The notes: generated from the letters alone by a model not told the origin. DNA of 64,000 bases from an uncultured bacterium (GCA_903895695.1 CAITUY010000145.1:224-64223); one strand, 5' to 3'. Positions 6,087 through 54,264 are shown, numbered from the stretch's first letter. Translations and numbers: made by a program.

Positions 6087-6239
6087 CACACAGCGCCGCT
6101 CAAGTGCCTTGTACCTGTTGAGTCTTCCCGTCTGCCTCTTGTGGAGCGGCGCGGCTTCCCGCGCCGGCCTGCCCTGAGCGCCATCGAAGGGCCGGAGCCG
6201 GAAGCGGCGCCGCTCCCTGTGGCAGGGGGCGGATAGGCT

Positions 6240-37979: not shown

Positions 37980-39545
37980 ATGCGACGGACCGCCAACACA
38001 ACGAAGACCGGCCTGCCGAGTGTCGGTCAGGTGAAGCCGCCGCGAGACTCGGTCTTTGCGAAGCTCGTTAGAGCGCTGCCCTGGCTGTTGATCTCGGCTC
38101 TTTCCGCCCAGGCCATATGCATGACGCTGGTTGGGGGGGTCACTCCTGATGAGTTCGCGCACATTCATTACATGTGGCTTGTCCATCGACTGTTCAATGC
38201 GAATGTAGATTTCCTGTGTCCCTATCCGACCGTGTTCTACAGGCTCTTTGGATTCCTGCTGGACGTGTTTCCCCAGAACGCCGTGTTCATTCTGTATGCC
38301 AGGCTGGTGGCGCTGCTGTTCCTGGGTACCATGGCGTTTCTCATGGGGCGGATTTGCAGGGAGGCGTGCGGCGTGTCCTGGCCGGGTGTACTGGTCATCC
38401 TCTTGCCCGTGGCGGGATCTCTCGCGACTTTCCACGAGTTTCGCCCGGATAATTGTGCCTACGCGCTGTTCCTGGCTGGCTTACTGCTGCTGTGTCGTTG
38501 GCCGAAGAGCCGCTTGGCTATCAGTTCCGCTGCCTTTCTGACGGTATTCTCCCTGTGCATTATGCCGAAACATGTGCTGCTGGCGGCCGGCGCCGCGCTC
38601 GGATTCCTGACTATGGGATGTGTCACGAAATCAATCACTATGCGGGGAAGTCTGCCATGGGCTTTCCTTGGACTGCTGGCGGCCCTGATAGGGGTCACTG
38701 TCACCATACGGCCTGAGTTGGGCGTGTTTCCTGAATTTGTGAAATTGGCGCAAAGGAATGCGCTGGCCGAAAAGGGACTCGTGCGGGCCTTCTTCTTGCA
38801 GCTGTGCAGCGCCGTGCATTGGCCGTCCGCCGTCGTGTTGCTATCCGCCCCGCTGTTTGCGATCCTTGGCTTCGTGACGCAGAGGATCCGGATCCTCAGG
38901 CGGAACCCCATGCCTTGGCAGTGCAAAGGCATCATGCTTGGAGTGCTGTGTGGTGGGATTGCTCACGCTTCCCTGAGTCCCTGTCCCTATTCACAGAACC
39001 AGTCTGTCTTGTACATGGCGATGGCCATTGGTATTCCTTTGACCGCTGGTGTTCTTTCTCTGGTTCCCTGGGCGATCCTGTCAGTGGCCCTGGGCGGCAT
39101 CTATCTGGTCAATCTGTGGCCGGCGACCCGGCACGCCCTGGACACAGCGCCAACGCTGTGGAACGTCGAAGTGAACTCGTACCTGCTGAAGATCATTCCG
39201 GAGAATGAGTACGTTGTCGCGCCAACGTATACAGGGCCGGTGTTCCGGAATGAACCGACTTATCACTACTGCAGCGACAATCCCGCGTATAGAGAGGCGG
39301 TTCCCGCCGAGAAAAAGCGTTTGTTCACGGCGGACTATTTCTACCAGCGGCTGTGCAGCACAAGGCCGGCGTATTTCTGCTTCGCCTATATGAGCCATCA
39401 GCCCCCGGAGTACTTCGCGGCCTGCCAAAGATATCTTTCGGAGAACGGAGGCGCATACGCGGTCGTGTCCTATGCCTCCTACGAACCTGGCGCCGGGGGA
39501 CTCGAAATGCTGGTGCGAAGCGATCTTTTGGGCCTCAAGAAGTAA
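37980..39545 (+). CDS. Polytopic membrane glycosyltransferase, GT-C-like
   Basis: TPDEFAHIH after the first TM, EFRPD motif, many TM segments, soluble C-terminus. Confidence 0.65.
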   Translation: MRRTANTTKTGLPSVGQVKPPRDSVFAKLVRALPWLLISALSAQAICMTLVGGVTPDEFAHIHYMWLVHRLFNANVDFLCPYPTVFYRLFGFLLDVFPQNAVFILYARLVALLFLGTMAFLMGRICREACGVSWPGVLVILLPVAGSLATFHEFRPDNCAYALFLAGLLLLCRWPKSRLAISSAAFLTVFSLCIMPKHVLLAAGAALGFLTMGCVTKSITMRGSLPWAFLGLLAALIGVTVTIRPELGVFPEFVKLAQRNALAEKGLVRAFFLQLCSAVHWPSAVVLLSAPLFAILGFVTQRIRILRRNPMPWQCKGIMLGVLCGGIAHASLSPCPYSQNQSVLYMAMAIGIPLTAGVLSLVPWAILSVALGGIYLVNLWPATRHALDTAPTLWNVEVNSYLLKIIPENEYVVAPTYTGPVFRNEPTYHYCSDNPAYREAVPAEKKRLFTADYFYQRLCSTRPAYFCFAYMSHQPPEYFAACQRYLSENGGAYAVVSYASYEPGAGGLEMLVRSDLLGLKK

Positions 39546-39561
39546 CTGGTGGAGGCACACT

Positions 39562-40281
39562 ATGTCGTACGATGTGGCCGTTGTGATGCCCGTCTACAAT
39601 GAGCAGGATTGCATCGATTTCGTGGTGCGGTCCTGGCTCGACGTGTTGTCAGGAACGGGTGCCAGCTTTCTCTTGATTGTGCTGAATGACGGTTCCCGCG
39701 ATGGCACGGAGAAGGTGTTGGCCGGATTCAGAGACCATCCTCGTTGTCGCATCGTCAACAAACCCAACAGCGGTCATGGTCCCACCATTCTGGCGGGCTA
39801 CGCCATCGCGGTCCAGGAGGCTGAATGGGTCTTTCAGTGCGATAGCGATGACGAAGTGGAGGCGCGCCATTTCGTTGACCTATGGGAGGCGCGCAAGGAC
39901 TATGACGCGCTTTTCGGCACGCGCTGCGACCGGCATCAGGGGGCGGGGCGTGCGCTGATCAGTGCGGTTTCGCGCGCCACTGTTCGACTGGCATTCGGTC
40001 GGGGGGTGACCGATGTCAACACGCCATTCCGGCTGATGCGCAGTGCCCTGCTGGCCCCGATCATCAGCCAGATTCCGGCCGGGACGTTTGCGCCCAATGT
40101 GCTCATTTCGGGCGCGCTGGCGGGTGGCGGGGCCCGCATCTGCAATCTACCCGTGCCTCACCGCGGTCGTCGCACAGGGACCGCATCGATCGTCAAGTGG
40201 AAGCTGGTCAAAAGCGCGTCCCGGGCTTTCCTGCAAACGCTCTGCTGCCGACCACGGTTGCCTGCGAGGACCGACGACTGA
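39562..40281 (+). CDS. GT2 DPM1-like glycosyltransferase
   Basis: VVMPVYNEQ, LNDGSRDGT, NSGHG, FQCDSDDE, DVNTPFRLM; GGAGG RBS. Confidence 0.88.
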   Translation: MSYDVAVVMPVYNEQDCIDFVVRSWLDVLSGTGASFLLIVLNDGSRDGTEKVLAGFRDHPRCRIVNKPNSGHGPTILAGYAIAVQEAEWVFQCDSDDEVEARHFVDLWEARKDYDALFGTRCDRHQGAGRALISAVSRATVRLAFGRGVTDVNTPFRLMRSALLAPIISQIPAGTFAPNVLISGALAGGGARICNLPVPHRGRRTGTASIVKWKLVKSASRAFLQTLCCRPRLPARTDD

Positions 40282-40372
40282 GCTTCCCGTCCGGAGGATC
40301 TCGGGCTTTTGTGATTGAGCCGAGTCGAGCGGACGGGTATCCTTGAAGCTCATTCTGAAAGCAGGTGGCTTT

Positions 40373-41557
40373 ATGGGGAACACATTCAAGAGCAGCCGAC
40401 TTGACTTGGCCGTGGATACGATCAGCCGCGACGACATTGAGGAGTTGATCGGCTGGTTGCGCGAGTACCCCCGGTTGACGATGGCCGACGAAACGAAGCG
40501 CTTCGAACAGGCTTGGTCCGACTGGCTCGGCGTCCGGTACAGCGTCATGTGCAACTCGGGATCGTCGGCCAACCTGCTGATGTGCGCGGCCCTCGATCGC
40601 GCCCCGTCAGCCAAGGTACGGAAGATTGTGGTGCCGGCCACGGGCTGGGCGACGACCCTGATGCCGGCCATCCAACTGGGGTGGCAGCCGCTCATGTGCG
40701 AGTCGGATTCCCGGACTTACGGCATGGACCTGGCGCGCCTGGAAGAGCTGCTGAAACGCGAGCGGCCCGAGGCGGTCATGTTGGTCCAGGTCCTGGGCGT
40801 CCCGAATGACATGACCCGTATTCTCGCGCTGCAACGCCAGTACGGGTTCGACCTTGTGGAAGATTGCTGCGCGAGTCATGGGTCCACGCACCAGGGCCGC
40901 AAGGTAGGGACGTTCGGGCTGATGTCGTCATTTTCCTTCTATTACGGGCATCACATGTCGACCGTGGAAGGCGGCGTCGTATGCACGAACGAAGAAGACG
41001 TGTATCACCGGTTGCTCATGCTGCGAAGCCATGGCTGGCTCAAAGACCTGCCGCCAGCCAAGGCGAAGGTTGTAATGGACAAGTACGGCGTGGACGGCTT
41101 CCACGCGCCCTTCACCTTCACGCTCTCCGGGTATAATCTCAGGCCGACGGATATCAACGCCAGGCTGGGCCTGATCCAGTTGCGCCGCCTGGACGACACG
41201 ATTCGGATCCGGGTGGCCAATCACCTGGCCTACCAGGCGGCACTCCGCGGTTGCGTGGATTTCGCGGAGTGCATCCCGGGTGATACGATCAGCAGCATTT
41301 CCTTCTGCGCCGTCGCCAAGTCGACCGCGGAGCGCCGGCGCGTCGTCGAGGCGCTCGAACGGAACACGATCGATACCCGGATATTCACGGCGGGCAATCT
41401 GGGCCGGCACCCCTTCTGGATCGATCGCTATGGCGAGTTCCGCGCACCCGTGGCCGACAGGCTCTACGAATGCGGGTTCTTCCTGCCCAACAACCAATCA
41501 TTGGGTGTGAAAGATGTCGGGATGGTCTGTGACGTCGTGAAGAAGGCGCTTCAGTAG
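40373..41557 (+). CDS. PLP-dependent NDP-4-keto-6-deoxy-sugar 3-dehydratase (ColD/RfbH-like)
   Basis: NSGSSANLL, EDCCASHG, SFSFYYGHHMSTVEGG (His at the usual catalytic Lys position), LRSHGW, GYNLRP. Confidence 0.82.
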   Translation: MGNTFKSSRLDLAVDTISRDDIEELIGWLREYPRLTMADETKRFEQAWSDWLGVRYSVMCNSGSSANLLMCAALDRAPSAKVRKIVVPATGWATTLMPAIQLGWQPLMCESDSRTYGMDLARLEELLKRERPEAVMLVQVLGVPNDMTRILALQRQYGFDLVEDCCASHGSTHQGRKVGTFGLMSSFSFYYGHHMSTVEGGVVCTNEEDVYHRLLMLRSHGWLKDLPPAKAKVVMDKYGVDGFHAPFTFTLSGYNLRPTDINARLGLIQLRRLDDTIRIRVANHLAYQAALRGCVDFAECIPGDTISSISFCAVAKSTAERRRVVEALERNTIDTRIFTAGNLGRHPFWIDRYGEFRAPVADRLYECGFFLPNNQSLGVKDVGMVCDVVKKALQ

Positions 41558-41598
41558 CGCGCAACAGGACCGCACCTGCGCGTTTCCCGGTACTGTAA

Positions 41599-41698
41599 CT
41601 GTCGCGTGCTACAGGGGTAGCACGCCCACACACAGGGGACTGGAGACGACATGTCTATTCTTGATGAGGTGGGCGCGCTGCTCCGTAGCGCGCGACAG
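41599..41698. repeat. REP doublet (REPIN-like), copy A1
   Basis: ctgtcgcgtgctacaggggtagcacgcccac-spacer-gtgggcgcgctgctccgtagcgcgcgacag; each arm is GTGG plus a hairpin. Confidence 0.88.
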
Positions 41699-41800
41699 GG
41701 CTGCAACTGGAGGGCCGTAATCGGACTGTCCTATTGTAAGGCCAAGATCGCTGTGGCAGAATAGCGGTTCCTCGTGACCTTGAAACGGAAGGATGCCAGA

Positions 41801-42649
41801 GTGGTTCATCCCAATCTCTCGACCGAAAAACATCTGCTTCTGCGGAAGAAAGCGGACTGGGTGTGGACGGAGACACTCCGCATACACGCTCGTTCTCCGG
41901 AGACGCGCGTGGCCTCGTCTCTTTCACCGATTGAGATGCTCGTATGCTTGTACTATGGGGGGTTGCTCGCGTTTGATCCCCGGAATCCCCGTTGGGAGGC
42001 CCGTGATCGCCTCATCATCAGTAAAGGCCACGGGTCGATTTGCATGTACCCAATCCTCGCCGACCTTGGGTACTTTGCGATGAGCGAGCTCGAGCGGGTC
42101 TGCAAACTTGACAGTTTCCTTGGGGGCATCCCCGATCCCGTGATTCCCGGCTACGAAACAGTCAACGGTTCGTTGGGACATGGTCCCGGTGTTGCCTGTG
42201 GAATGGCGGTGGCCCTGAAGAGAAAGCAGTCACGAAACAAGGTGTTCGTGATGGTGGGTGACGGCGAACTGGATGAAGGCGCCGTCTGGGAGGCGATCAT
42301 GTTCGCCGGGCACCATCGGCTGGATAACTTGGTCATGCTGGTTGACAGCAACGCCAAGTGCATGCTCGGGCACTCGCGTGAGATCATGAATGTCTTTCCC
42401 TTGGAACCGAAGTTCGAGGCATTCGGTTGGCTCACCATGACGGTCGACGGCCACGATATCCCGGCTGTTTACGCGGCGCTGGCGGAATGCGCAGCCAGCG
42501 GCCCGGCCCAGCCCCGGGTGCTTATCGCCAACACCGTGAAGGGCAGAGGGGTGCCGTCGCTGGAGCGCGACCCGTTGTGCCACATCCGGACCCTCGGTCA
42601 GCAGGAGATTGCCGAACTGATAGGAGGTGGCTGTGGCCCCCGCGTCTAG
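41801..42649 (+). CDS. Transketolase, N-terminal TPP-binding subunit
   Basis: DRLIISKGHG, NGSLGHG, GDGELDEG, NTVKGRGV. Confidence 0.9.
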   Translation: MVHPNLSTEKHLLLRKKADWVWTETLRIHARSPETRVASSLSPIEMLVCLYYGGLLAFDPRNPRWEARDRLIISKGHGSICMYPILADLGYFAMSELERVCKLDSFLGGIPDPVIPGYETVNGSLGHGPGVACGMAVALKRKQSRNKVFVMVGDGELDEGAVWEAIMFAGHHRLDNLVMLVDSNAKCMLGHSREIMNVFPLEPKFEAFGWLTMTVDGHDIPAVYAALAECAASGPAQPRVLIANTVKGRGVPSLERDPLCHIRTLGQQEIAELIGGGCGPRV

Positions 42650-43589
42650 CAGGATGAGAGACGTCTTCCTCGCCTCCGTGCTGGCGCGGATGAAGACTGA
42701 CCGCCGATTGTTCTTTCTATCCGCCGATTTCGGATCGCCTGTGCTCGATGTCGTTGCCCGCGATTACCCGGATCGTTTCATCAACGTGGGCATTGCCGAA
42801 CAGAATCTGATCAACGTCGCCACGGGCCTGGCGTTGGAGGGATTCGTCGTTGTCGCCTATGCTATTGCGCCGTTCCTTTCCATGCGGTGCTATGAACAGA
42901 TACGGGTGAACCTGGGCATCCTCTCGCAGGTGCGGCCACTCAACGTCAACATGGTCGGCGTGGGGGCCGGCCTCAGCTACGACGTGTCGGGGCCTACGCA
43001 TCAGGCGCTCGAGGACCTGTCCATCATGCGCACGCTTCCCAATGTGGAGGTGCTGTCGCCGGCAGATGGCGCCAGTGCCGGCGCGATTGCCGAGTATTGC
43101 CTGGAGCATAGCGGGCCCAAGTATGTCCGGTTGGATGGCAAGCCGCTGGCCTCACTTTATGAGACTGGGGCGGCGGTCAACGTCGAGATGGGCTTCCACG
43201 AATGGCGCCGCGGAACGGATGTGTGTCTTGTGGCTACGGGGTATATGGTGCACACGGCGCTGAAGGCCGCGCAGATCCTGGAGGCCGAGAACCTGAGCGT
43301 TGGGGTCGTCGACATGTTCGCGTTGAGCAAGTACAAGGCGTCCGAGCTCTCGGATGTGCTTGGGCACTACCAGACCGTGATTACGATCGAGGAGGGGTTC
43401 GTCGGCAAGGGCGGCCTCGATGCGTGCCTGAACGAAGCTCTCGGGGCGCGCGGCGGCCAGCGTGTGCATGCTCTCGGGCTGCCGAGCCGCTACAGTTTCC
43501 GCGTTGGCGATCGGGACGAAATGTTGCGCGACTCAGGCCTGGGAGAGGTGAGCATCGCGGCAAAGGCCCGTGAGTGCCTGCGACGTTGA
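42627..43589 (+). CDS. Transketolase, C-terminal subunit
   Basis: MRDVF, NVGIAEQN, EQIRVN, GPTHQALED, YVRLD, TIEEG. Confidence 0.9.
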   Translation: MAVAPASSRMRDVFLASVLARMKTDRRLFFLSADFGSPVLDVVARDYPDRFINVGIAEQNLINVATGLALEGFVVVAYAIAPFLSMRCYEQIRVNLGILSQVRPLNVNMVGVGAGLSYDVSGPTHQALEDLSIMRTLPNVEVLSPADGASAGAIAEYCLEHSGPKYVRLDGKPLASLYETGAAVNVEMGFHEWRRGTDVCLVATGYMVHTALKAAQILEAENLSVGVVDMFALSKYKASELSDVLGHYQTVITIEEGFVGKGGLDACLNEALGARGGQRVHALGLPSRYSFRVGDRDEMLRDSGLGEVSIAAKARECLRR

Positions 43590-43611
43590 CGTGAGTCTGG
43601 CCAGGACTTTG

Positions 43612-43706
43612 CCTGTCGCTTGCTACGGGGTAGCACGCCCACAGAGAGAGAGCCAGCCCGCATGTCTTGAATGAGGTGGGCGCGCTACTCCGTAGCGCGC
43701 GACAGG
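43612..43706. repeat. REP doublet (REPIN-like), copy A2
   Basis: cctgtcgcttgctacggggtagcacgcccac-spacer-gtgggcgcgctactccgtagcgcgcgacagg. Confidence 0.88.
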
Positions 43707-43723
43707 GTTGCGCCCGAGTTCGG

Positions 43724-46042
43724 CTACTGGCCGGCCGTCGGCATCGTGAAAGACTTGCGATATACCACGATCCCTTCTTTCGATCCCGGCCATTCCTGCA
43801 TGGGGCGTAACCCGATCGCCTTGGATTGCATATCGACAAAGGGGTCGGGGAATACCCAGACGTAGGGTTCCTCGGGCGGTCCCTTGACTCCCGTTCCGCC
43901 CACAGCCTGCCAACCACTGTCGTCATAGTCCAAGCCCTTCCAGTTGCCGGAAGGGTTGAAGGCCGTCTTCCATGTGGGGTCGGTGGTTACATCGCCGTGT
44001 TGCGTTCTCAGGCAAAGCTGAACCCAGTCCGGGTACGCCTTGTACCGTGCCGCCAGCGCAAGCACATGGCGACCCGGCGCCAGTTGGAGCTTCCAGATCA
44101 TCATTTGCTCGGGGTTTTCGGCTGAGCCCATATCTCGCCCGTCGATATACGCGTGCGTCCGGGTGTCGCAGTAGACCCCCATCAGAGCGTTCGAGGTGCT
44201 TTCGTGAGCCCACAAGAGCGTCTCGGTATATTGCCGGACGACGGCATTCGTCGAGGTCTGGAGCGTGCCCTCATAGAGCGGCCGAGCCGCGTCAAATCCC
44301 TTCATCTTTTCAACGTAGGCAACTTGGCGCAGCCGCAGCAGGTCTACGAACGGGAACGCCGGATAGATGGCGATGAAACCATCGATATACTCCGACGCGC
44401 CGGCGTAGTCGTGCAGCCGTTCGTAGTTCCAGATGTCGGTCATGACGGTCGCCTGCTCCATCGGGTCGCGGGGGGCAACCCTGTCTTGGGCGGTGCCCAA
44501 ACGACTGAACGCGGGGGTGGGCTGGGCCATATAGTAGAACGCCGTGCTTTCCATCCATCCGTGGCTCTGTTGGTTCGGTCCTCGCTCAAAGACCATGTCG
44601 AACGACTGGTCGAACAAGGAGGGATCCATCAGGTGCACGCGGTACTGCACGGTACGGAAGGGAGCTTTGATCGGCACGCCGTGTGTTGGCTCGGCCAACA
44701 CATTTTGATAGTACCAGCCGCCGTTAAAGTAGTCCTCAAGGCCCGTCCCGTACCAAGCCTGCGTGGTCTCCGCATCTTTGCGGATCGATTCGTTTCCCTC
44801 CAATAGCCAGAAAGTGCGATCGGCGCAGACCACACCCAGAATGCACCCCACATACTTGCCTTTCCCTGTGGCATGCAGAATGGGGTGCGGCGAGCCCACA
44901 TCGCCGGGCGACGTGCGATACCATCCGGCATGGAAATAGCCCAGGCGGGCATCCCAGGTCGGGAGCGGCTCCGCCTCGACGCTCAGGGTCACACGGACCG
45001 GTGTAGTGCCTTGATTCTCAAGGCCGATCGCCGCCGCGGTCTTGAAGGGCATGGGGAACCGGCAGGAGAATGTGGAATTGCTGAGACCAAAGAACATGGA
45101 CTCGTACCGTGTTCGCCGCCACACACTGCCAAAGAAGTCCCCCAGGGGCACCTGGACGCTCGCGGCGGTCGAGCCATCCCAGCGGATGCTGAGCAGCATA
45201 TCCCGGAGCACTCGTTCGCGCTCTGCCACAGTCTCCAACCCATCGAAATCAGGTTGGATCTGAACCGATCTGATAACGGCCGGGCCCGACAGTTGGATTA
45301 TGTTCGAAGCGTTGCTGCCGGGAGCGAGGACGAGTTGCGTTGAGGTGGCCGGCGGTAAGCCCGGGGGCAACAGCAGACCGTCCGTCCACGTCTTGCGAAC
45401 CTGTTCGACGGCGGAGAGTTCGTCCGGCGTCAACGTGACGGGAAAGCTTAGCGTTGTGCGTCCTCCGGTCAGAGTTCGGTAGGCAATCTGGTAGAAGAGC
45501 CGTGTCTGACCGCTGGCTTTGAGCTCTCCCTCCTGCATCTCGATGCGTATCGACTTGGCGTAGGGCAGCGGCACAAAACTGTAGAAGCAGTAATTCTTGT
45601 ACTCAGCCAGCGGGGGCAGGAACGGTGCCATTCCCCCGCACAGGGTGCCCACGGTCGTGTCGATGCGGGCCTTGCGCTCGCCATCGAAGAATATCCGGAC
45701 GCGGTGGGACGATTCTCCGCCGGTGAACCAGAACCGCGAGACATAGCCCGGCCCTCGCAACTCCGCGAGCACAACCCATCCCGTGGGGCCTTTGCGCAAG
45801 AAGTTGTTGTAGTCAGTGTTGCCGCCCGTTCGGTCGCCTGAACTGACCAGTCGCGTGTCGGCGCAATCCAGTCGGGCCAGTTCCACGGTGTTGGTCAGGT
45901 CCCGCAGGAAGTCTGCGAAGCCGAGGGGCGGTTGCGACGAGCGTGGCGCGCAGCCCACGAGCGCGGCGCAGGCCATGCCCGCGGCTACCCCCACCATGGC
46001 AAGCGTAAAGCCCGCCCTGCTTCTGCATAGCTGTTCAACCAT
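43724..46042 (-). CDS. DUF2961 (GH172-like) glycoside hydrolase, probable lipoprotein with C-terminal extension
   Basis: Lipobox-like ALVGC; SSGDRTGGNTD, GPGYVSRFWFT, VPLGDFFG, GKYVG, GTGLEDYFNGGWY. Confidence 0.78.
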   Translation of the reverse strand: MVEQLCRSRAGFTLAMVGVAAGMACAALVGCAPRSSQPPLGFADFLRDLTNTVELARLDCADTRLVSSGDRTGGNTDYNNFLRKGPTGWVVLAELRGPGYVSRFWFTGGESSHRVRIFFDGERKARIDTTVGTLCGGMAPFLPPLAEYKNYCFYSFVPLPYAKSIRIEMQEGELKASGQTRLFYQIAYRTLTGGRTTLSFPVTLTPDELSAVEQVRKTWTDGLLLPPGLPPATSTQLVLAPGSNASNIIQLSGPAVIRSVQIQPDFDGLETVAERERVLRDMLLSIRWDGSTAASVQVPLGDFFGSVWRRTRYESMFFGLSNSTFSCRFPMPFKTAAAIGLENQGTTPVRVTLSVEAEPLPTWDARLGYFHAGWYRTSPGDVGSPHPILHATGKGKYVGCILGVVCADRTFWLLEGNESIRKDAETTQAWYGTGLEDYFNGGWYYQNVLAEPTHGVPIKAPFRTVQYRVHLMDPSLFDQSFDMVFERGPNQQSHGWMESTAFYYMAQPTPAFSRLGTAQDRVAPRDPMEQATVMTDIWNYERLHDYAGASEYIDGFIAIYPAFPFVDLLRLRQVAYVEKMKGFDAARPLYEGTLQTSTNAVVRQYTETLLWAHESTSNALMGVYCDTRTHAYIDGRDMGSAENPEQMMIWKLQLAPGRHVLALAARYKAYPDWVQLCLRTQHGDVTTDPTWKTAFNPSGNWKGLDYDDSGWQAVGGTGVKGPPEEPYVWVFPDPFVDMQSKAIGLRPMQEWPGSKEGIVVYRKSFTMPTAGQ

Positions 46043-47306
46043 TGGCATCCCCTCCCACGTGATCTGTGCCCAGCACCTCGTCAATTAACGCACAATGCTT
46101 GGCCGCCGCGACTTCGGGGTCGAAGCACTGTTTCGCGCGCTCGCGTCCCGCTTGGCCTGCTATCGTCGCTTCCTGGGGGTGTTTGGACACGAATTCGAGG
46201 ACCTGGCGGAAGGACTCAAAACTATCCGGCTCAAACAAATAACCATCCACACCGTGGTGGATGATCTCGGCCATGCCGGGCAAGCCGGTCGCGACCGTAG
46301 GTTTGCCTGTGGCCATGCTGTTGAATAATGCGCTGGGGATGATGCCCTCATTGTCTTCTGAATTCCGTCGGATCACCAGAAGGCAATCCCCGGCATTCAG
46401 GTAACCGTTTACGTCTTGCTTCGTCGGCAACCAGCCTGTCATGACCACGCTTCCGCCTATCCCGAGGTCGGCAATCTGCTGGCGACACCACGATTCGCCG
46501 CCCGCGCCACCGATGATCAGCAACCGCCATGGCGGATGTATCACATTCAACTGCCGCCACCACTCGAGAAGCTGGCCATACCCCTTTCCGGGTCGAATGA
46601 TACCATGGATCGCGACCACCCAGTGCTGCGACGTGAATCCGCACTTGGTTCGCTCGACATCTCCTGCGGCCGGTCCAAAGACGCTCGGCGCGCTGGGCGC
46701 GTTAATGACTCTGACACGCTCGGGCGACATTCCTTTTCTGACAACAACCCTCGCTTCGGCCTGGGTCGTAGAGACCACCCACGCCTTTGTCATCTTGTTC
46801 CACCGCGTCACTTCCGACCGCTCCAACCGCCCGGCCACTTTGCGTCCCCAGGTCGTACCGCCCAACAAGATGGACCACCACCAGTCGCTCGTGGCGATCA
46901 GCATCGGAACGCCGAGTCGCCCCACGACGCACGGGACAAAAGGCAGGGTTTCCTTGCAGATGATGAAAGCGGGGGCCTCCCGCCTCAACTGCCGCATGGC
47001 CCAGGGCAGAAAGAGGTAATACAAGATCGTCTTGGCCCATTTATCGATCGCGTTTCGCTGGTCCACGCTGAATGGGAACTGGATCGTGCGCACGCCTTGG
47101 CGAAGTGTGCTGTCGACCTTCCCGGGAGTGCGCATGCTGAAATAGATCACGTCGTACCTGGTCAGGAGATTATCCAGCATGCGGCGCAAGGCGGGGTACT
47201 GCACCGTCTCCGTCTCCGGCGGATAGCGATGGAAATAGACCACTAACGGGCGGGACTGGCCGCGCGTCGGCGCTTCAGCGGATGGATCGGTTGCCGGACT
47301 GGTCAC
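46035..47306 (-). CDS. GT4 (GT-B) glycosyltransferase
   Basis: GIIRPGKG, MTGWLP, EGIIPSALFNSMATGKPTVATGLPGMAEIIHHGVDGYL. Confidence 0.85.
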   Translation of the reverse strand: MTSPATDPSAEAPTRGQSRPLVVYFHRYPPETETVQYPALRRMLDNLLTRYDVIYFSMRTPGKVDSTLRQGVRTIQFPFSVDQRNAIDKWAKTILYYLFLPWAMRQLRREAPAFIICKETLPFVPCVVGRLGVPMLIATSDWWWSILLGGTTWGRKVAGRLERSEVTRWNKMTKAWVVSTTQAEARVVVRKGMSPERVRVINAPSAPSVFGPAAGDVERTKCGFTSQHWVVAIHGIIRPGKGYGQLLEWWRQLNVIHPPWRLLIIGGAGGESWCRQQIADLGIGGSVVMTGWLPTKQDVNGYLNAGDCLLVIRRNSEDNEGIIPSALFNSMATGKPTVATGLPGMAEIIHHGVDGYLFEPDSFESFRQVLEFVSKHPQEATIAGQAGRERAKQCFDPEVAAAKHCALIDEVLGTDHVGGDANG

Positions 47307-47446
47307 GCTATCTCCTTGGACTCCACGGAGTAAAGTCAGACGATCACATGTGCAAACGGTGTGTTCAAGATCAAAACGGCCAGATCAACAGCCTTGGCCG
47401 GTCTACCTTGACTTTCCAGGATGATCCCGGCATCTTTTTCCTGCTG

Positions 47447-48400
47447 ATGGAATCTTCGCCCACACACAGCAAGAGCCAGTCCCAAGCCCGGATCTCCTTG
47501 ATGGCAAAGTTCCGCGAGTGGGCCCTTATCTTTCGCGGCGATCTCCGTGCCGCACGATCGACTCCCGACAGTTCCGATATCTTCACGCGAGTCGAGGAAT
47601 ACAGGCAGTTGCTCGACAGGTACACGGGCAAGAAACTGATGCAGGCCAGCCTTTTTGATATTGGCTATGGTCCCAGGCCTTATGCCCTCCTGGCCCTGAT
47701 CGGTTTGGGCATTGACGCGCGCGGCATCGACATGGATGCGCCCGTTCTCCGGGGGCGACCGTCGGAGTTCTGGCGGATACTGAAGACCAATGGACTGGAG
47801 CGGGCCGTCAAATCGGCGGTCATCTTTTTCTGTTTCAGCGCGCCGAAACTGCGGTCGCTGCAGCGTGAACTGCGACGGCGTGGCGGGGCCCTGGTCACGC
47901 CGCCTGGCCGACTTCTGGTTGGCGATGCAGGTCAACTCGACCTGCCTGCCGGATCCCTCGACCTGATCGTATCCGAGGATGTATTCGAGCATATCTCCCA
48001 GCCATCGCTCGAGGCTGTGGTGGCGAGGATGGCGCGCTGGTTGAAGCCGGATGGCCTGGCGCTTGTCCGCCCGTGCATCTATACCGGTCTGTGGGGCGGG
48101 CATCTTGCCGAGTGGTGCATGACGGACCTGGACGACCCGCGGATTGTGCGCAGGAGCCAGCCTTGGGATCATCTCCGGCAGCGACAATTCCGTCCGAACA
48201 CTTACCTCAATGAGCTGTCGCGCGCGGATTTTCGAGACTTGTTCAGACGGCATTTCGAGATTCAGGAGGAGACGGTCCGGAACACGGATCTGGGCCGTCG
48301 ATTCATGACGCCGGAGATAAGAGCCGAACTCGGTCGGTACCCCGACGAGGAGCTTTTCAGCAACCAAGTGCTCTTCGTGCTTAGGCCGAAACGCTCATAA
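47447..48400 (+). CDS. Class I SAM-dependent methyltransferase
   Basis: FDIGYG, SLDLIVSEDVFEHI, RWLKPDG, YLNEL; start uncertain (47447 or 47501). Confidence 0.75.
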   Translation: MESSPTHSKSQSQARISLMAKFREWALIFRGDLRAARSTPDSSDIFTRVEEYRQLLDRYTGKKLMQASLFDIGYGPRPYALLALIGLGIDARGIDMDAPVLRGRPSEFWRILKTNGLERAVKSAVIFFCFSAPKLRSLQRELRRRGGALVTPPGRLLVGDAGQLDLPAGSLDLIVSEDVFEHISQPSLEAVVARMARWLKPDGLALVRPCIYTGLWGGHLAEWCMTDLDDPRIVRRSQPWDHLRQRQFRPNTYLNELSRADFRDLFRRHFEIQEETVRNTDLGRRFMTPEIRAELGRYPDEELFSNQVLFVLRPKRS

Positions 48401-48571
48401 CGGGTATCGCTTGGCTGGGGGACGCGCCTTGGTTTGCCTCCTATGGCCTTGTAGGGCGCGTATGGTTGTGGCAACGTGAGTCACCAGTGCCGTTGGGGCG
48501 GGCACGACACGATAGGCGTCGCACCGGCCCACCATGTCGCGTGGATTGACCTGCAGGAGGGGAGCCGGATC

Positions 48572-49831
48572 ATGATCAGCATGTTCAGAACGGATCGGGC
48601 GATGGACCGCTGGGCGTGGTTTGTCATGGTCGCGGGCATAGTCGGCATGGCGGTATGGATGTTCCAAGGCGTGCTGGCACACGATGTCATCCTGTTCAGC
48701 ACGGATAACAACATCGGCGGCATCGACTACGTCAAGGAGCAGCTCCCCGGGGCCTATGCCGGGCTCTGGTTGAATTTTCCTCTTTTGGGGGGTGGCGATC
48801 CGGTCGCGCTCAATTGCACAACCGCTTTGTCCTGGTTGCTGCCTTTGAACACCTATATGGACTGGATCCACGCCGTCCATCTTGGCCTGGCCTCTGTCTT
48901 CCTGGTCTGTTTTCTTCGTCTCCACCGTTTGTCCTGGCTGGCATGCGCGATGGCGTGGCTCACGGCCTATTGGGTGGGCACGAACTTCACACTTGTATAT
49001 GCGGGCCACACCGGGAAGTTCGGGGTGGTCATGTTTGCGACCGCCGCCCTGTGGTGTATCCGCCAATTGGCGCTGAGCTCTTCGTGGGCCTGGTCCCTTT
49101 TGGCAGGCGCCTGCCTGGGCGGCATGCTTCTGGAACAGCAGGATGTGACTGTCTTCGTCGGCCTGTTCGTCGGCGCCTACGCGGTGTTTGCGGTCGGGCG
49201 CAGCGTGGGATGGCGGGTCAGGCCGGTCTTGATGCGCGTGGTCCCGATTCCCGCTGTCGCGCTGTTGCTGGCGGGCGGCACCATGCTTAAAGCGTACGCC
49301 GTGAACGTGGCAGGCGTCGCCGTGATGGAGGAAGACTCCGGTGCAAAGTGGGAGTTCTGTACGCAGTGGAGTGTGCCGCCGGATGAGTCGATCGAATTCG
49401 TGGCCCCCGGCTACATGGGCTGGCGATCCGGGGAGCCGGAAGGGCCTTACTGGGGTCGCACCGGTCGTTCCGCCGGCTGGGAACAGACGGGTCAGGGGTT
49501 CATGAATTTCCGGCTCGAGGGCATCTATGTCGGCGCGATCCCGGTGGCGCTGGCGCTGTTCGCCGTGGCGGCGGCCGTGTGGGGCGGGCGGTCCGATCGC
49601 CGCGCCGAGATCTTTTTTTGGGGTGGCGCAGCGGTGCTGGCTTTACTGCTCGCCTTCGGGAAGTTCTTCCCTCTGTATGCGCTGTTGTACAAGTTGCCGG
49701 TGCTTAACAATATCCGCAACCCGAACAAATTCCTCCACGTGTTCCAGGTTGCGCTGGGCATCCTGGCGGCCTATGGGCTGGATACGGCCGTGAGATGGCG
49801 GGGAGAGACCCGGCATCCGCAGGCGCTGTAG
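48572..49831 (+). CDS. YfhO-like membrane glycosyltransferase, N-terminal half
   Basis: LWLNFPLLGG, YAGHTGKF, TQWSVPPDE, YWGR, IYVGAIP, IRNPNKF...ILAAYGLD, then a stop; lacks the C-terminal YfhO region. Confidence 0.75.
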   Translation: MISMFRTDRAMDRWAWFVMVAGIVGMAVWMFQGVLAHDVILFSTDNNIGGIDYVKEQLPGAYAGLWLNFPLLGGGDPVALNCTTALSWLLPLNTYMDWIHAVHLGLASVFLVCFLRLHRLSWLACAMAWLTAYWVGTNFTLVYAGHTGKFGVVMFATAALWCIRQLALSSSWAWSLLAGACLGGMLLEQQDVTVFVGLFVGAYAVFAVGRSVGWRVRPVLMRVVPIPAVALLLAGGTMLKAYAVNVAGVAVMEEDSGAKWEFCTQWSVPPDESIEFVAPGYMGWRSGEPEGPYWGRTGRSAGWEQTGQGFMNFRLEGIYVGAIPVALALFAVAAAVWGGRSDRRAEIFFWGGAAVLALLLAFGKFFPLYALLYKLPVLNNIRNPNKFLHVFQVALGILAAYGLDTAVRWRGETRHPQAL

Positions 49832-49860
49832 CCGGGTTGACGTTGCCCCTGGGCTCAACA

Positions 49861-49953
49861 GCCGCGCGCCACGGGGTGGCGCGCCCACACAGAGCGGGAC
49901 TCGCCGCTGTTCTTTCCCGGGGTGGGCGCGCTGCCCCGTAGCGCGCGACAGGG
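49861..49953. repeat. REP doublet (REPIN-like), copy B1
   Basis: gccgcgcgccacggggtggcgcgcccac-spacer-gtgggcgcgctgccccgtagcgcgcgacaggg. Confidence 0.88.
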
Positions 49954-49972
49954 CGGACCGATGCCGCTAGCC

Positions 49973-51478
49973 TCAAGCCCCGGTCTGCACTCCCGGTATC
50001 TCGGCTTCGCCGAACTGCCTGTGCGTCCGCTGGAGTCTGTGGCGCGTCATGTCCTGAATGTGGCGCACGGTGTCGAGACCAAACAGGCGCTGTATCTTCG
50101 CGAGATAGCGAGGGTTCTCATAGTAGGCATGGAAAGCGTAATCCCGGAAACTGAGGACTTCGCCTGCCGTCAGATGCCGCGTTGGCAACGGGAGTGAGTC
50201 GCGCGCATAGGGCGAGTATCCGGACCACGATGCCGGGAGCGCCCACCCCTGCGCTATGGCCTGGTCATGGAGCCGCGTGCCTGGATAGGCCACGGCCGCG
50301 TAGATATTCAGCCACTCGGCATTGATGTCCATGGCCATGTTGAGCGTTTGCTGCATGCTGTCGAAATCGTCTTCCGGGAGTCCGAAGATAAAGTTCGACA
50401 GGACGTACAGTCCCTCTTGGTAAGTCATGTCCACGATCTTCATCGTTGTGGACGCGTCGTAACGTTTGTCGACGTCTTTCAGGACGCGTTCGTTCGCAGA
50501 CTCGAATCCGTAGGCCACCCAATGGATGCCGGCTTTCTTCATGCGGGCCAGCATCCGCGGCGTGACGGTATTGACGCGAGCATAGGCCCACATGTTGAGG
50601 TCGTACCCGCGTTCTATGATCCGGTCGCAGAGGTCGATTACCCGATCCTCGTTGAGCGCAAAGAGTTCATCGATGATCTTGATATTCCGGATGCCATAGC
50701 GGGTGACGAGCCCGTCGAGGTCCTCGATCACTCGTTCCGGGCTCCGCAGTCGGATCCCGGGTTTGCCGAACATGGTGTTGATGCAGCAAAAGCTGCAGTT
50801 GAAAGGACACCCGAGACTTGTATAGAGCACGCCGTAGGGTTGGCGGTCCTGAATGTGGCCGAAACAATGCCAGTTGTGCGCCCGGTAGCGAGTCATGGGC
50901 AGCAAGTCCCAGGCGGGCTGCGGCAGGGCGTCGAGGTCGGCGCACACCGGCGCCCGCGGGTTTGCGCAGACGCGCCCGTTCTCGCGATACCACAGGCCGG
51001 GTATCCGGAAGCCAGGCGCCGGCGACTGGAGCGCCTCGACCAAATCCACCAGGGCTTGGAAGCCCTCCCCCTCGAAGGCGAACTCCACATGCTCCTCGTC
51101 CATCGTGCGTGCCGGGAGGGCCGAGACGTGCAGTCCGTGGATGGCTGTCTTGATTTCCGGCGCGATGTCCCTGAGATTGCGCAGGACGTGGCCTGCGCCG
51201 ATCATGTTCATGGTAGAGGCTGATGGATTGCTGCCGGAAACGGAAATCACGGCCAGCAGCGGGTTCAACGCCTTGATCCGTGCGGCGGTCTCGGCGCCAT
51301 CCCATCCCTCGACTTCCGCGTCGAGCAGTTCCACCGCATGGCCGTGCGAGCGCAGGTAACCCCCGAGCAGGGCCGCCCAAAGCGGGGGCTCGACCGCCGT
51401 AAGGGAGAACTCGCTCAAGGCTCCATATAAGCGCTTCTGGTCGCCAGGTTTAACGATTACGACCGTCGGTGAATTCAT
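49973..51478 (-). CDS. B12-binding radical SAM protein
   Basis: AVEPPLWAALL, GLHVSALP, GEG, YRAHNWH, SLGCPFNCSFC, FIFGLPED, AYPGT. Confidence 0.9.
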   Translation of the reverse strand: MNSPTVVIVKPGDQKRLYGALSEFSLTAVEPPLWAALLGGYLRSHGHAVELLDAEVEGWDGAETAARIKALNPLLAVISVSGSNPSASTMNMIGAGHVLRNLRDIAPEIKTAIHGLHVSALPARTMDEEHVEFAFEGEGFQALVDLVEALQSPAPGFRIPGLWYRENGRVCANPRAPVCADLDALPQPAWDLLPMTRYRAHNWHCFGHIQDRQPYGVLYTSLGCPFNCSFCCINTMFGKPGIRLRSPERVIEDLDGLVTRYGIRNIKIIDELFALNEDRVIDLCDRIIERGYDLNMWAYARVNTVTPRMLARMKKAGIHWVAYGFESANERVLKDVDKRYDASTTMKIVDMTYQEGLYVLSNFIFGLPEDDFDSMQQTLNMAMDINAEWLNIYAAVAYPGTRLHDQAIAQGWALPASWSGYSPYARDSLPLPTRHLTAGEVLSFRDYAFHAYYENPRYLAKIQRLFGLDTVRHIQDMTRHRLQRTHRQFGEAEIPGVQTGA

Positions 51479-51587
51479 GCCGCTTGATTCTCGTGATGGA
51501 CGCTTGGAAGGCAAGCCGATTTGTGACCGCGCACCGAGGGAACGACGGAGCGATGGTGGGGCCGCTGGCGGTCTGGTGGCCTTGACG

Positions 51588-51662
51588 GTCGCGCGCCACA
51601 GGGGTGGCGCGTCCACACAGAGGGTGTCCCAAGGTGGGCGCGCTACCCCCGTAGCGCGCGAC
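51588..51662. repeat. REP doublet (REPIN-like), copy B2
   Basis: gtcgcgcgccacaggggtggcgcgtccac-spacer-gtgggcgcgctacccccgtagcgcgcgac. Confidence 0.88.
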
Positions 51663-51767
51663 GGGGCTGTGGCCGGAAGATGGCGACGGATTATCTTTCA
51701 TCTTTGCATTTCTCCCCCTTTTCCTTCAGCCTACAGCGCACAGACTAAACCACGGTCGGCAACAACT

Positions 51768-53225
51768 ATGAGCAAAGATAAGAAGAAGCCAGCGACACGA
51801 GGCGCCTCCGTCAATTCCCGCGACGAAGCCGCATCCCCGCGGCCGAGCGCAGTTTCCCCTCTGTGGGCTCGCGTGTTCGTGTGGTGCGTCCTGGGTGCTG
51901 CCGGCCTCTTGGCACTGTGGGCGCTGGTAGTGACAACCAACCAGGCGGCCGAAATACGCCGGTTCTCGGAGCAGGGCTGGGGCCAGCATGCGAGCGCGAT
52001 CGTCGGCAATCAAGTGCGGGCCCTTTGGCACGCCGCTTTCATGATGGCGGTCGCAGGAGTCGCTTTGTGGTGGATTATTGGGAAAAGAGGGTCGAGGGTT
52101 GAGGGTCGAGGGGCAGGGGTCCGAAATGGTGCGGCAGCAGCAGTCCGAAGTCCGCGGTTCGTTGTCCCTGTCCTTTTGGTGCTGATTGTGGCGTTCGACG
52201 CCGTGTGGTTTTCGCGGAATTACGTGAAGACTTTGCCCCTGTCGGGCTTCGAGGCAAACCCGGTGATTGCGATATTGAAGAAGGACACGCCGGAGCACCG
52301 CGTCGCGTTGGTATCCCAGGACGGCTTCTATAATTGGTGGCTGACCTATCTGTTTCCCTACCACGGGATCTTGACCGTCAACATCACGCAGATGCCTCGC
52401 ATGCCGGCCGATTACAAGGCCTTCCTGGGCGCGATGGGACGTAACCCTCTGCGGATGTGGCAGCTCTCGGCGGTGGGATATGTGCTGGCGCCGGCCCCGG
52501 TGTGGCGGCAGATCCAGCACGACCCGGCCTGGAGCAACGCCTTCGAACTGGTCTGCGGGTACAATGTGGCGCCGGCTGAGGCGGGTGTGACCGTGGTGCC
52601 GGTGTGGGAGCGCGCAAGCCTGGAATCAGGAGACAGAAGTCAGAAGCCAGAAATCGGAGCGTCGGCTGTTCCTCCTAAAGACGTCGGTGAGCACGTTGTC
52701 CTGCGTTTGCTTCGACCCGCCCCTCGCTTCGCTTTGATCGGCGCCGTGCGTCAGGTGGATGATGAGGAGGCATTGAAACTGCTGGGTTCACCTGCCTACG
52801 AATTGTTTCAGGAGGTGCTCGTTCCGCCTGTAGCCGCGGGCGCCGACCCCGGGCGTGCGGCTGCTGAAGCGGCGCTGACCAATGCCGGATTCATGGGCAC
52901 CTGCACGTTGAGCCATTATCGCCCCGGCCGTATGGAGGTCGAGGTCAAGGCGACCAAGCCGGGTATCCTCCGGGTGAGCGAGAAATACGATAGGGACTGG
53001 AAGGCGACCGTGGACGGCACGCCCGAGCCCGTGCAGCGAGTCGATTTCATCATGCAGGGCGTGCTGGTGCCGGCAGGCGAACACAGGATTGTGCTGCGGT
53101 ATGCACCCTCCATCTGGCCTCTCTACGTACAGGGCGTGGGGATGCTGATCGTGCTCGGCGCCGTGGGGTGGCTGGTTGGCGCGAAGATCCGCGCGCGCAA
53201 GTCGCAAACAATGATCAGCAAATAG
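51768..53225 (+). CDS. YfhO-like membrane protein, C-terminal half
   Basis: TM segments, then LRVSEKYDRDWKATVDG...VQRVDFIMQGVLVPAGEHRIVLRYAP and a terminal TM, the typical YfhO C-terminus. Confidence 0.78.
   Translation: MSKDKKKPATRGASVNSRDEAASPRPSAVSPLWARVFVWCVLGAAGLLALWALVVTTNQAAEIRRFSEQGWGQHASAIVGNQVRALWHAAFMMAVAGVALWWIIGKRGSRVEGRGAGVRNGAAAAVRSPRFVVPVLLVLIVAFDAVWFSRNYVKTLPLSGFEANPVIAILKKDTPEHRVALVSQDGFYNWWLTYLFPYHGILTVNITQMPRMPADYKAFLGAMGRNPLRMWQLSAVGYVLAPAPVWRQIQHDPAWSNAFELVCGYNVAPAEAGVTVVPVWERASLESGDRSQKPEIGASAVPPKDVGEHVVLRLLRPAPRFALIGAVRQVDDEEALKLLGSPAYELFQEVLVPPVAAGADPGRAAAEAALTNAGFMGTCTLSHYRPGRMEVEVKATKPGILRVSEKYDRDWKATVDGTPEPVQRVDFIMQGVLVPAGEHRIVLRYAPSIWPLYVQGVGMLIVLGAVGWLVGAKIRARKSQTMISK
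52087..52161 (+). repeat. In-frame heptamer array inside the YfhO C-half
   Basis: gagggtc gagggtt gagggtc gaggggc aggggtc ... cagtccg aagtccg cggttcg, encoding RGSRVEGRGAGVRNGAAAAVRSPR. Confidence 0.65.
52622..52656 (+). repeat. In-frame heptamer array inside the YfhO C-half
   Basis: ggaatca ggagaca gaagtca gaagcca gaaatcg, encoding ESGDRSQKPEI. Confidence 0.65.
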
Positions 53226-53235
53226 TGATTCGGCA

Positions 53236-54264
53236 GTGACAGAACCCCACAATATCAAGCTCTCCGTCGTCATCCCTACTTTGGGACGGCCGATCTTGAT
53301 CGACACGCTGAAGTCCCTGCTGGCCGCCCAGGGAGTCGACGACATTGAAATCATAGTGGCGGGGCGAATCGCGGATGTAGCGGTAGCCGCTCGGGTGAAG
53401 GACCTTGTCGGGCGCTACCCGCGCATCAGGCATCTGGAAGTGGCCTTTCCTTCCGGCGACTCGAGCCGCAAGAAGAACGCCGGTGCCGAGATAAGCCGGG
53501 CGGATCTCGTTGCGTTCATCGACGACGATGTGATCGTGGCGTCGGACTGGCCGCTGCGCATTGTCGAACCTTTTGCCGATCCAGCGGTCGGCCTCGTTAG
53601 CGGTCCCAGCCTTGTCCCGGACGATCTGCCGCTCATGGCGCGGCTGGCGGGCGTGACGCTGGCCTCAAAAGCGGCAGGTTATGTTGCCCAGAGGTACCTG
53701 CAGGGCGACCCGCATCCGCGCGAAGTTCGCTGGTCCTTCCTGATCGGTTGCAACATGGCGTTCAGGAAGACCGTGTTGAACGAACTGGGTGGCTTTGACC
53801 CGGCCTTCTGGCCCGGCGAAGAGATGATCGCCTCTTCCAGGGCCACGCGCGCAGGCCACAAACTGATCTTCCACCCGCACGCGTTCCTCTATCACTATCC
53901 CCGTTCCTCATTGCTTCGGTATCTCAAACAGATCTACGGCTATGGCGCGACTCGAATCCGGCTGCTAAGGGCAGGCGTGGAATTCGAGGCCACGACATTG
54001 CTCCCTGCTCTATGGGTGCTATCGCTGTTGGTGCTCGGAATTACGGCCCCGTTCTGTCAATGGTGTCTGTGGCTGCTTGTGGCAGATATTGCCCTGTACC
54101 TGGTCGGCGCGCTCGCCATTACCGCTCAGAAGGTCGGTGAGACCCGTCATTGGAAGGACGTACTGATGTTTCCGCTCGTGCCTCTGACGCATCTGAGCTA
54201 TGGGATCGCCGAATGGGTTGAGGTGTTTATGCCCGGTCGCGATCTAAGCGTGAAGAAGGGATAG
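53236..54264 (+). CDS. GT2 glycosyltransferase with C-terminal TM helices
   Basis: LSVVIPTLGR, KNAGA, AFIDDD, GCNMAFRK, GGFDP. Confidence 0.88.
   Translation: MTEPHNIKLSVVIPTLGRPILIDTLKSLLAAQGVDDIEIIVAGRIADVAVAARVKDLVGRYPRIRHLEVAFPSGDSSRKKNAGAEISRADLVAFIDDDVIVASDWPLRIVEPFADPAVGLVSGPSLVPDDLPLMARLAGVTLASKAAGYVAQRYLQGDPHPREVRWSFLIGCNMAFRKTVLNELGGFDPAFWPGEEMIASSRATRAGHKLIFHPHAFLYHYPRSSLLRYLKQIYGYGATRIRLLRAGVEFEATTLLPALWVLSLLVLGITAPFCQWCLWLLVADIALYLVGALAITAQKVGETRHWKDVLMFPLVPLTHLSYGIAEWVEVFMPGRDLSVKKG

Follow-up and report, generated by a model that had tools for sequence, protein, structure and literature searches.

Repetitive extragenic palindromes (REPs) and the inverted REP pairs termed REPINs are usually abundant, dispersed and vertically inherited, REP-mediated duplications are known from older work, and surface-glycan loci are hypervariable. 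Palindromes also delimit segments in other systems: miniature inverted-repeat transposable elements (MITEs) bracket composites such as integron mobilisation units, the Y1 transposase of IS200/IS605 peel-and-paste transposition needs same-strand hairpins at both ends, and integron attC sites are single-stranded DNA (ssDNA) hairpins with RYYYAAC/GTTRRRY cores, served by the IntI tyrosine recombinase. Here, we describe four hairpin doublets, A1, A2, B1 and B2, in a glycan locus of an uncultured bacterium (GCA_903895695.1, CAITUY010000145.1:224-64223; these 64,000 nucleotides are referred to as the window). The locus runs from a DegT-type aminotransferase gene through A1, a split transketolase-like pair (TK_N and TK_C), A2, a 6.1-kb block, B1, an inverted radical SAM gene (rSAM) and B2 to a YfhO-like gene. 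In the available part of Di Nocera et al. (2013, PMC3733652), GTAG-tagged REPs occur in the Planctomycetes-Verrucomicrobia-Chlamydiae (PVC) group and a GTGG head in most elements of Opitutus terrae (Verrucomicrobia); the REPs described there are GC-rich stem-loops of 6-9 bp, singletons or dimers, situated mostly between convergent or co-directional genes near stops. REP copy number usually exceeds 100 per genome according to the accessible section of Nunvar et al. (2010, PMC2817692) and, as far as the available text of that paper and of bioRxiv 10.64898/2026.03.23.713779 goes, operon-end REP elements of Escherichia coli affect mRNA 3' ends.

We read the four doublets, with roughly even confidence, as members of a small REPIN family of local spread, which marks the junctions of a rearrangement and possibly took part in making them, and not as carriers of genes. 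An earlier note on this DNA had placed four inverted arm pairs here and had recognised in them the REP-type architecture of a hairpin headed by GTRG; both observations hold good. Every arm follows one plan, namely GTGG, a 9-nt GC-rich stem, a C-rich loop of 3-4 nt, the complementary stem and GAC (28-29 nt in all), and in each doublet the GTGG heads of both arms point inward. The left arm type is preceded by CTCTGT-like bases and the right arm type by GAGG. The left arm of A1, with its GTGG head on the minus strand, has the A-type stem GCGTGCTAC/GTAGCACGC and that of B1 the B-type stem GCGCGCCAC/GTGGCGCGC. Folded as ssDNA, each whole doublet forms one long hairpin whose stability was equalled by none of 200 shuffles (z-scores of -5.7 for A1, -5.0 for A2, -4.6 for B1 and -6.3 for B2).

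All four doublets lie between open reading frames (ORFs), and one is found at each larger transcription-unit boundary between 40 and 54 kb of the window. Three of them stand 20-43 nt past stop codons: A1 begins 43 nt after the DegT stop and ends 77 nt before the start of the TK_N ORF, A2 is flanked by the convergent stops of TK_C (25 nt) and of the DUF2961 gene (20 nt), and B1 by those of the 451-aa gene (29 nt) and of rSAM (23 nt). B2 lies midway in a divergent gap of 290 nt; the likely ATG of rSAM (51478) is about 109 nt away, and that of the YfhO-like gene (51768) about 105 nt. The elements thus have the short GC-rich stem-loop, the GT[AG]G head and the extragenic position, mostly near gene 3' ends, of REPs, and the two inverted REPs plus spacer, foldable as one hairpin, of REPINs: they are inverted pairs of GTGG-headed hairpin REPs, that is, REPIN-like doublets. 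An Rfam search of the elements returned sub-threshold chance matches only and no family. A consensus terminator scan yielded 14 terminator-like sites that included none of the eight arms, which lack a T-run; a weak spacer hairpin in B1 (49893-49908) was the sole doublet feature among those sites.

The earlier note had further proposed that covariation keeps the hairpin, and this is borne out by an alignment of 21 arms, of which eight come from the window, one from contig C147 of this genome, seven from the sister genome G001 and five from metagenome contigs. The GTGG head is invariant in all 21. Stem cells are paired in 98.3% of cases, both sides have changed in three of the nine stem pairs, and the covariation score was reached by 0 of 500 shuffles. 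The compensatory changes maintain the hairpin of the single arm and not the left-right pairing of the long doublet hairpin. The claim that the copies flanking each unit are each other's closest relatives stands for one pair and falls for the other. A1 and A2 are sister copies: the A-type left stem (C-G to T-A) occurs in these two alone among the 21 arms, and they have in common the right-arm loop T and the spacer motif CATGTCT...TGAGG. B1 and B2, by the same characters, are not exclusive closest relatives. The B-type left stem (CAC/GTG) is found in seven of 20 distinct arms (B1, B2 and five others), the left-arm core of B1 is identical to a G001 copy, and that of B2 is one base away from the metagenome copies L034 and L041. 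The characters of the right arm form a reticulate pattern, with a G-T variant joining A1 to B1 and the loop T joining A1 to A2, which suggests exchange between copies or parallel change.

The family is rare, confined to one locus in this genome and restricted to the genus. The genome (G000) is a 6.34-Mb metagenome-assembled genome (MAG) of 94.6% completeness in which the window lies on contig C145; G001, an 88% complete MAG of a sister species, is the only other genome of the genus. Incompleteness and contig breaks inside arms make the arm count of G000 a lower bound. A first regular-expression screen of G000 gave 19 matches, 11 of them outside C145, and among these only the one on C147 was confirmed by BLAST and by the profile. 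With blastn-short, matches of at least 30 nt occurred on C145 and at C147:51-83 only. With every filter disabled, an nhmmer profile built from the 21 arms recovered nine full arms in the 6.34 Mb, together with one half-arm each at C145:1-16 and C147:1-16; no other match fell below E=1. Hence the copies are neither numerous nor dispersed, as REPs commonly are: all nine full and two half-arms are on C145 and C147. Other REP-like families of G000 gave 65-128 matches on 38-78 contigs at the same mismatch threshold. Since the half-arms abut to form a perfect 28-nt arm when the start of C147 is joined to the reverse complement of that of C145, the two contigs are probably neighbours, broken at the hairpin centre. 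That inferred adjacency would place a fifth doublet some 224 nt outside the left edge of the window, flanked by two family 2 glycosyltransferase (GT2) genes. Four of some five doublet sites fall within 10.1 kb of 6.34 Mb, a clustering far beyond chance (n(w/L)^(n-1) of about 2e-8).

Outside this genome the exact arm pattern, present eight times in G000, was found six times in G001 (at least seven arms by fuzzy search) and not at all in 39 other relatives; a control with the reversed pattern gave 0 matches. Among 185,579 species-representative genomes, several copies occur in G001 only. Six single pattern matches in other phyla of that collection had unrelated loops or stems and were set aside as chance GC palindromes. 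The metagenome collection held true copies on three contigs of one sample (L034, L041 and L043); eight other pattern matches there, from other phyla, single and with unrelated 4-5-nt loops or stems, were likewise discarded as chance palindromes. In G001 the arms are mostly single and spread over at least five contigs.

The evidence that turns on gene order comes from a TK_N search of 300 same-phylum genomes, from which the seven best loci were compared. The earlier note had correctly described what the doublets enclose, the TK N+C pair between A1 and A2 and a single radical SAM gene between B1 and B2, and had taken these to be separately inserted or removed REP-bounded cassettes; this interpretation did not survive the comparison. 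In six of the seven loci rSAM adjoins TK_N-TK_C in the same direction, with gaps of 9-41 nt between high-scoring segment pairs; four of these loci have rSAM upstream of TK_N and two have it downstream of TK_C. Because the genes form a contiguous, co-directional block in these loci, the TK pair and rSAM are two parts of one conserved module and not independent cassettes, and their linkage, with that of DegT, suggests a shared sugar-modification pathway. A DegT homologue (67-71% identity) adjoins the TK pair in three of the seven. Relatives have homologues of DUF2961, the family 4 glycosyltransferase (GT4), the 451-aa protein, a nucleotidyltransferase and an epimerase no more than 10 kb from the TK pair, and those of DUF2961, GT4 and the 451-aa protein do not lie between TK_C and rSAM. 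In the window, then, the module is split by the 6.1-kb block, with rSAM inverted, and the four doublets stand at the four breakpoints, which coincide with transcription-unit ends. The arm profile, run over 12 loci of relatives, found no arm. The earlier note had staked its proposal on the repeats not being scattered throughout the genome and on relatives not carrying the same genes, repeat-free, in the same order. The repeats proved rare and not dispersed; relatives do hold the genes without repeats, but in a different, contiguous order. Features of the locus are given in Table 1.

Table 1. Doublets and genes of the locus, in their order along the window
Feature	Coordinates	Strand	Details
DegT/DnrJ/EryC1-type sugar aminotransferase	40343..41557	+	Pfam 4e-65
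Doublet A1	41601..41696		left arm 41601-41629 (-), 39-nt spacer, right arm 41669-41696 (+)
Split transketolase-like pair	41774..43589	+	TK_N 41774-42649, TK_C 42627-43589; Pfam
Doublet A2	43615..43703		arms 43615-43642 (-) and 43676-43703 (+), 33-nt spacer
6.1-kb block parting the TK pair from rSAM	43724..49831		DUF2961 (-), GT4 (-), methyltransferase (+), 451-aa gene (+)
Doublet B1	49861..49949		arms 49861-49888 (-) and 49922-49949 (+), 33-nt spacer
B12-binding radical SAM gene	49973..51478	-	Pfam; open frame to 51616, likely start ATG 51478
Doublet B2	51588..51662		arms 51588-51616 (-) and 51634-51662 (+), 17-nt spacer
YfhO-like membrane protein	51768..53225	+	first gene past B2

The TK pair carries Transketolase_N followed by Transket_pyr/Transketolase_C, and the 451-aa protein has no Pfam match. 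The best homologues in same-phylum genomes share 56-62% identity with TK_N and 48-58% with TK_C; the closest rSAM homologue, in G057, shares 64%. The TK and rSAM genes do not stand out from their neighbours in GC or GC3, and G000 holds no second copy of either unit, the best paralogues being 30-42% identical. Among the paralogues, a second split transketolase-like pair is present in the window at 25931-27597 on the minus strand (38-40% identity to TK_N and 33% to TK_C), as are two more B12-binding radical SAM paralogues at about 2656-3762 and 7983-9275.

Regarding a cognate enzyme, PF01797 (Y1_Tnp) is present at five loci in G000 and at 13 in G001. None is on the window's contig or on any contig holding the arm family, in keeping with the earlier note, which had seen no REP-associated tyrosine transposase (RAYT) in the window. 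The genome-wide search that the note had recommended thus located further arms, on C145 and C147, and no RAYT flanked by them at any of 18 loci. With no Y1_Tnp locus bearing arms in these two incomplete MAGs, the link that defines a REP-RAYT pair is missing. Together with the copy number, this keeps us from assigning the doublets to a REPIN-RAYT system. No tyrosine or serine recombinase, integrase or resolvase is encoded on C145 or C147, where none of 23 PF00589 matches falls.

Other Y1_Tnp genes of these genomes merit description in their own right. On contig C81 (locus L013) a RAYT-like Y1_Tnp gene of 210 aa is flanked on both sides by its own GTGG-headed REP, GTGGGAGGCGCGCTCCGYCGCGCC, at C81:21934-22170 and about 22680-22710 (L013:1167-1320 and 1918-1943), of which there are six copies on four contigs; gene and repeats together make up a classical REPtron of a different family. 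Another RAYT-like protein, of 361 aa, is encoded on C143. The proteins of L011, L012 and L014 (contigs C66, C83 and C105; 332-363 aa) join Y1_Tnp to a C-terminal DnaA-type helix-turn-helix. The Bac_DnaA_C match, in L011, is weak; several Y1 proteins of similar length are present in G001, and these form a lineage-expanded Y1 family.

Evidence of turnover was obtained at several repeat sites. At about 6143-6216 the window has an intergenic doublet of the abundant GGAGCGGCGCGGCTTCCCGCGCCGGC-type REP family of G000 (some 90-120 copies), and at the same site a contig 98.1% identical over 2,347 nt (L043:1-172) carries arms of the rare GTGG-GCGCGCTAC family, an allelic replacement between two REP families. 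The doublet 3' of a 676-aa GT2 gene has been kept in a relative with 79% nucleotide identity in the flanking gene, and the right arm of this doublet matches at 27 of 28 positions; the spacer of this orthologous doublet has mostly diverged, and synteny stops exactly at the doublet. A 1.4-kb segment of G001 with HicB-like and PIN/ribbon-helix-helix (RHH) genes is bracketed by a direct repeat of 94 nt that has a REP arm at its end; this arm is a nested insertion inside the loop of another palindromic element, an unfilled copy of which lies 740 nt away. The toxin-antitoxin gene array of L017 (G001 contig C144, 3470-5150; HicB-like, PIN and RHH) has composite repeated intergenic units between its genes, including a palindromic element with 18-nt arms, GACAGGATGAACAGGATT/AATCCTGTTAATCCCGTC, that recurs near other REP copies of G001.

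Movement of the enclosed genes was sought in four metagenome runs from two studies, mapped on 39000-54000 as low-depth contigs (about 2-6x) that are blind to rare variants and so do not speak against excision. Within the limits of these contigs, no excision, deletion, inversion or circle joint was listed in any of the runs. The arrangement of the window is reproduced by contigs that bridge A1 (X1), B1 (X1, X2 and X3) and B2 (X3), also in a diverged strain of the second study. Weak junction entries with a depth of about 2.5 join 51666 to 49863 with 11 letters between (X3), 49949 to 49863 with 30 (X2), and 43277 to 47044 (X3); the first two resemble further arm-to-arm loci more than they do circles. 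Two segments, 48711-48743 and 52626-52658, behaved differently from both of their sides, contigs in all or most of the four runs matching for only some 32 nt; they may represent short motifs, either conserved or repeated, within the 451-aa and YfhO-like genes. A 3-nt deletion at 48724 is common to all four runs. G001 is too distant for an empty-site comparison, its DUF2961 protein being 45% identical and its YfhO-like protein alike only at the C-terminus, and TK_N was not found in this 88% complete genome, where the best rSAM match reaches 32% identity. G025, G031, G009, G035 and G015 have DegT or 451-aa homologues only, and these are not syntenic. Overall, no second copy, empty site, excision joint or target duplication was found as evidence of movement, and our literature searches, which returned mostly unrelated matches, produced no published description of REP- or REPIN-bracketed gene cassettes.

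A history that accommodates these observations can be outlined. The doublets would belong to the non-autonomous palindromic DNA on which Y1 HUH enzymes of RAYT type act, mobilised perhaps by a Y1 enzyme that is encoded elsewhere in the genome or was left unassembled. Their spread in G000 would have been local only, with A1 and A2 the outcome of a recent local duplication. They occupy non-essential gaps at the transcription-unit ends of the glycan locus and would have settled in, or been copied along with, junctions made by rearrangement, and at the two convergent junctions, A2 and B1, they may serve in cis as hairpins at RNA 3' ends.

Several points weigh against this reading. Applied to the 18 Y1_Tnp loci, the arm profile found nothing (0/18, best E 5.4), although at control loci it recovered seven known arms below 3e-7. 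Copy number is far under that of classical REP families, and spacers diverge strongly among copies, unlike those of young REPIN populations. The enrichment in glycan loci in two species (all five doublets in G000; in G001 four of seven arms, on contigs C33, C146 and C7, in loci for sugar nucleotides or glycans) and the conservation of a right arm at 27 of 28 positions could reflect selection for a locus-specific function, not selfish spread. Finally, the presence of doublets at all four breakpoints would be equally expected if they had caused the rearrangement.

Such a causal role is the alternative that we take most seriously, although on balance we think it unlikely. Recombination between doublets would have broken an rSAM-TK_N-TK_C-DegT module, inverted rSAM and admitted the 6-kb block, without making free cassettes of the pieces; it could have been RecA-dependent, or have gone through template switching at hairpins or strand transfer by a Y1 enzyme. 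Each arm is nearly its own reverse complement, and therefore 9+9 nt are common to any two copies, whichever their orientation. A doublet is present at four of four module breakpoints and absent from the tight TK_N/TK_C junction, the sister copies A1 and A2 flank one piece, the reticulate right-arm characters are as expected from exchange between copies, and the loss of synteny exactly at the orthologous doublet of the 79%-identical relative fits as well. Phylogenies offer a further hint: the rSAM tree joins the window to G057 (support 88/87) and leaves it out of the other clade (99/100), and in the TK tree it falls on the side of that other clade (87/88). The approximately unbiased (AU) test, however, retains the congruent placement (p 0.094 and 0.25), so that the discordance is not significant and was rejected as more than a hint. 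Moreover, the comparators are distant (48-71% protein identity) and vary in gene order without the repeat family, other new adjacencies (DUF2961/GT4 and GT4/methyltransferase) have no doublet, the breakpoints are tolerant intergenic gaps of the kind in which REPs gather afterwards, and the four metagenome runs, through their contigs, offered no inversion or deletion joint. If doublets do promote rearrangement or exchange of blocks, they would provide a simple mechanism of surface-glycan diversification and tie REP biology to the hypervariability of glycan loci. If they are passengers, apparent repeat-bounded cassettes need a check of gene order in relatives before mobility is inferred.

A quite improbable alternative is that the doublets are selected, locus-specific cis-regulatory or insulating elements, acting as RNA 3'-end hairpins or as a protein-binding palindrome, and are not presently mobile. 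The association with sugar-nucleotide and glycan loci in two species, the doublet found wherever a larger transcription-unit boundary occurs from 40 to 54 kb, the near-intact right arm beside a mostly diverged spacer, the compensatory changes that preserve the single-arm hairpin and the failure to find a cognate RAYT would all suit such elements. Less easily accommodated are their inconsistent positions relative to genes (on the 3' side of both neighbours, on the 5' side of both, or between co-directional genes), the lack of a T-run, of intrinsic terminators in the consensus scan and of an Rfam family, the occupation of one site by different REP families in strains that are 98% identical, and the copy nested in another element.

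It is also doubtful, a shade more so, that the REPIN family is a dedicated recombination device of glycan loci, its near-identical doublets serving as portable crossover sites or Y1 excision sites between functional blocks. Were this the case, the TK pair, rSAM and toxin-antitoxin blocks could change orientation or position, or be exchanged among strains, regardless of their diverged flanks, and an integron-like cassette system built from REPs, not from attC and IntI, would contribute to surface-glycan diversity.

We give even less credence to hitch-hiking, in which the glycan locus, or blocks of it, came from a related donor rich in this REP family with the doublets as passengers. The family does sit at a single locus in G000 and on at least five contigs in G001, the GC content of the window is 61.4% against 63.6% for the genome, related metagenome contigs hold extra copies, and loose contig ends together with the weak junction entries hint at arm-to-arm arrangements outside the MAG. 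Yet no genome with abundant copies emerged from the 185,579 species representatives or the metagenome scan, the resident abundant REP families are also present in the window, and the difference in GC is small and uniform over 64 kb.

The least probable explanation of all is that the TK pair and rSAM are mobile cassettes moved by a RAYT/IS200-IS605-type enzyme or integrated in Campbell fashion at a doublet: same-orientation doublets do bracket each unit, the derived characters common to A1 and A2 are those to be expected after a Campbell-type insertion, the 94-nt repeat with its REP arm brackets a 1.4-kb toxin-antitoxin segment in G001, Y1_Tnp genes exist at five G000 loci and neither unit has an orthologue in the incomplete G001, but both units derive from one module that is contiguous in six of seven loci, have no second copy and the composition of their neighbours, are bridged as in the window by contigs from two studies with no joint listed, and are accompanied by neither an arm-flanked RAYT locus nor an integrase or resolvase on C145 or C147.

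Set beside known systems, the doublets under our preferred reading, a local REPIN family at rearrangement junctions, show likenesses of several kinds. As in integron attC arrays, imperfect inverted repeats that fold as ssDNA hairpins lie between units of one or a few genes; an attC array was nevertheless rejected, the arm ends being GTGG and GAC without core sites, the contig lacking a tyrosine recombinase and the genes running in both directions. As in MITE-bracketed units, a segment lies between two non-autonomous palindromes of the same orientation, with same-strand hairpins at its ends, but here no second copy, target duplication, excision joint or cognate enzyme was found. With the bacterial interspersed mosaic elements (BIMEs) and REP 3'-untranslated-region elements of E. 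coli, as presented in the available parts of PMC2817692 and bioRxiv 10.64898/2026.03.23.713779, they have in common alternating orientation, two arm subtypes and a place at operon ends; the locus differs from BIMEs in having doublets only, with no longer arrays assembled, and binding of integration host factor (IHF) or gyrase, or an effect on RNA, is not something seen in the sequence. Compared with REPIN-RAYT systems, to the extent that these are covered by the accessible text of Bertels and Rainey (2011, PMC3116915, PMC3337134), the family has a tiny population, divergent spacers, no single-copy cognate RAYT and a preserved single-arm hairpin; it is, like them, lineage-restricted, being present in the genus and not found in 39 other relatives. 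The differences from the GTAG/GTRG REPs of PMC3733652, again within the part available, are about 10 arms per genome against tens to hundreds, a single locus and no flanked RAYT (REPtron) found, and the likeness is that of a tagged GC-rich stem-loop, with A2 and B1 situated 20-29 nt from both convergent stops. The doublets represent a new, small family of REP/REPIN type belonging to an uncultured freshwater PVC lineage.

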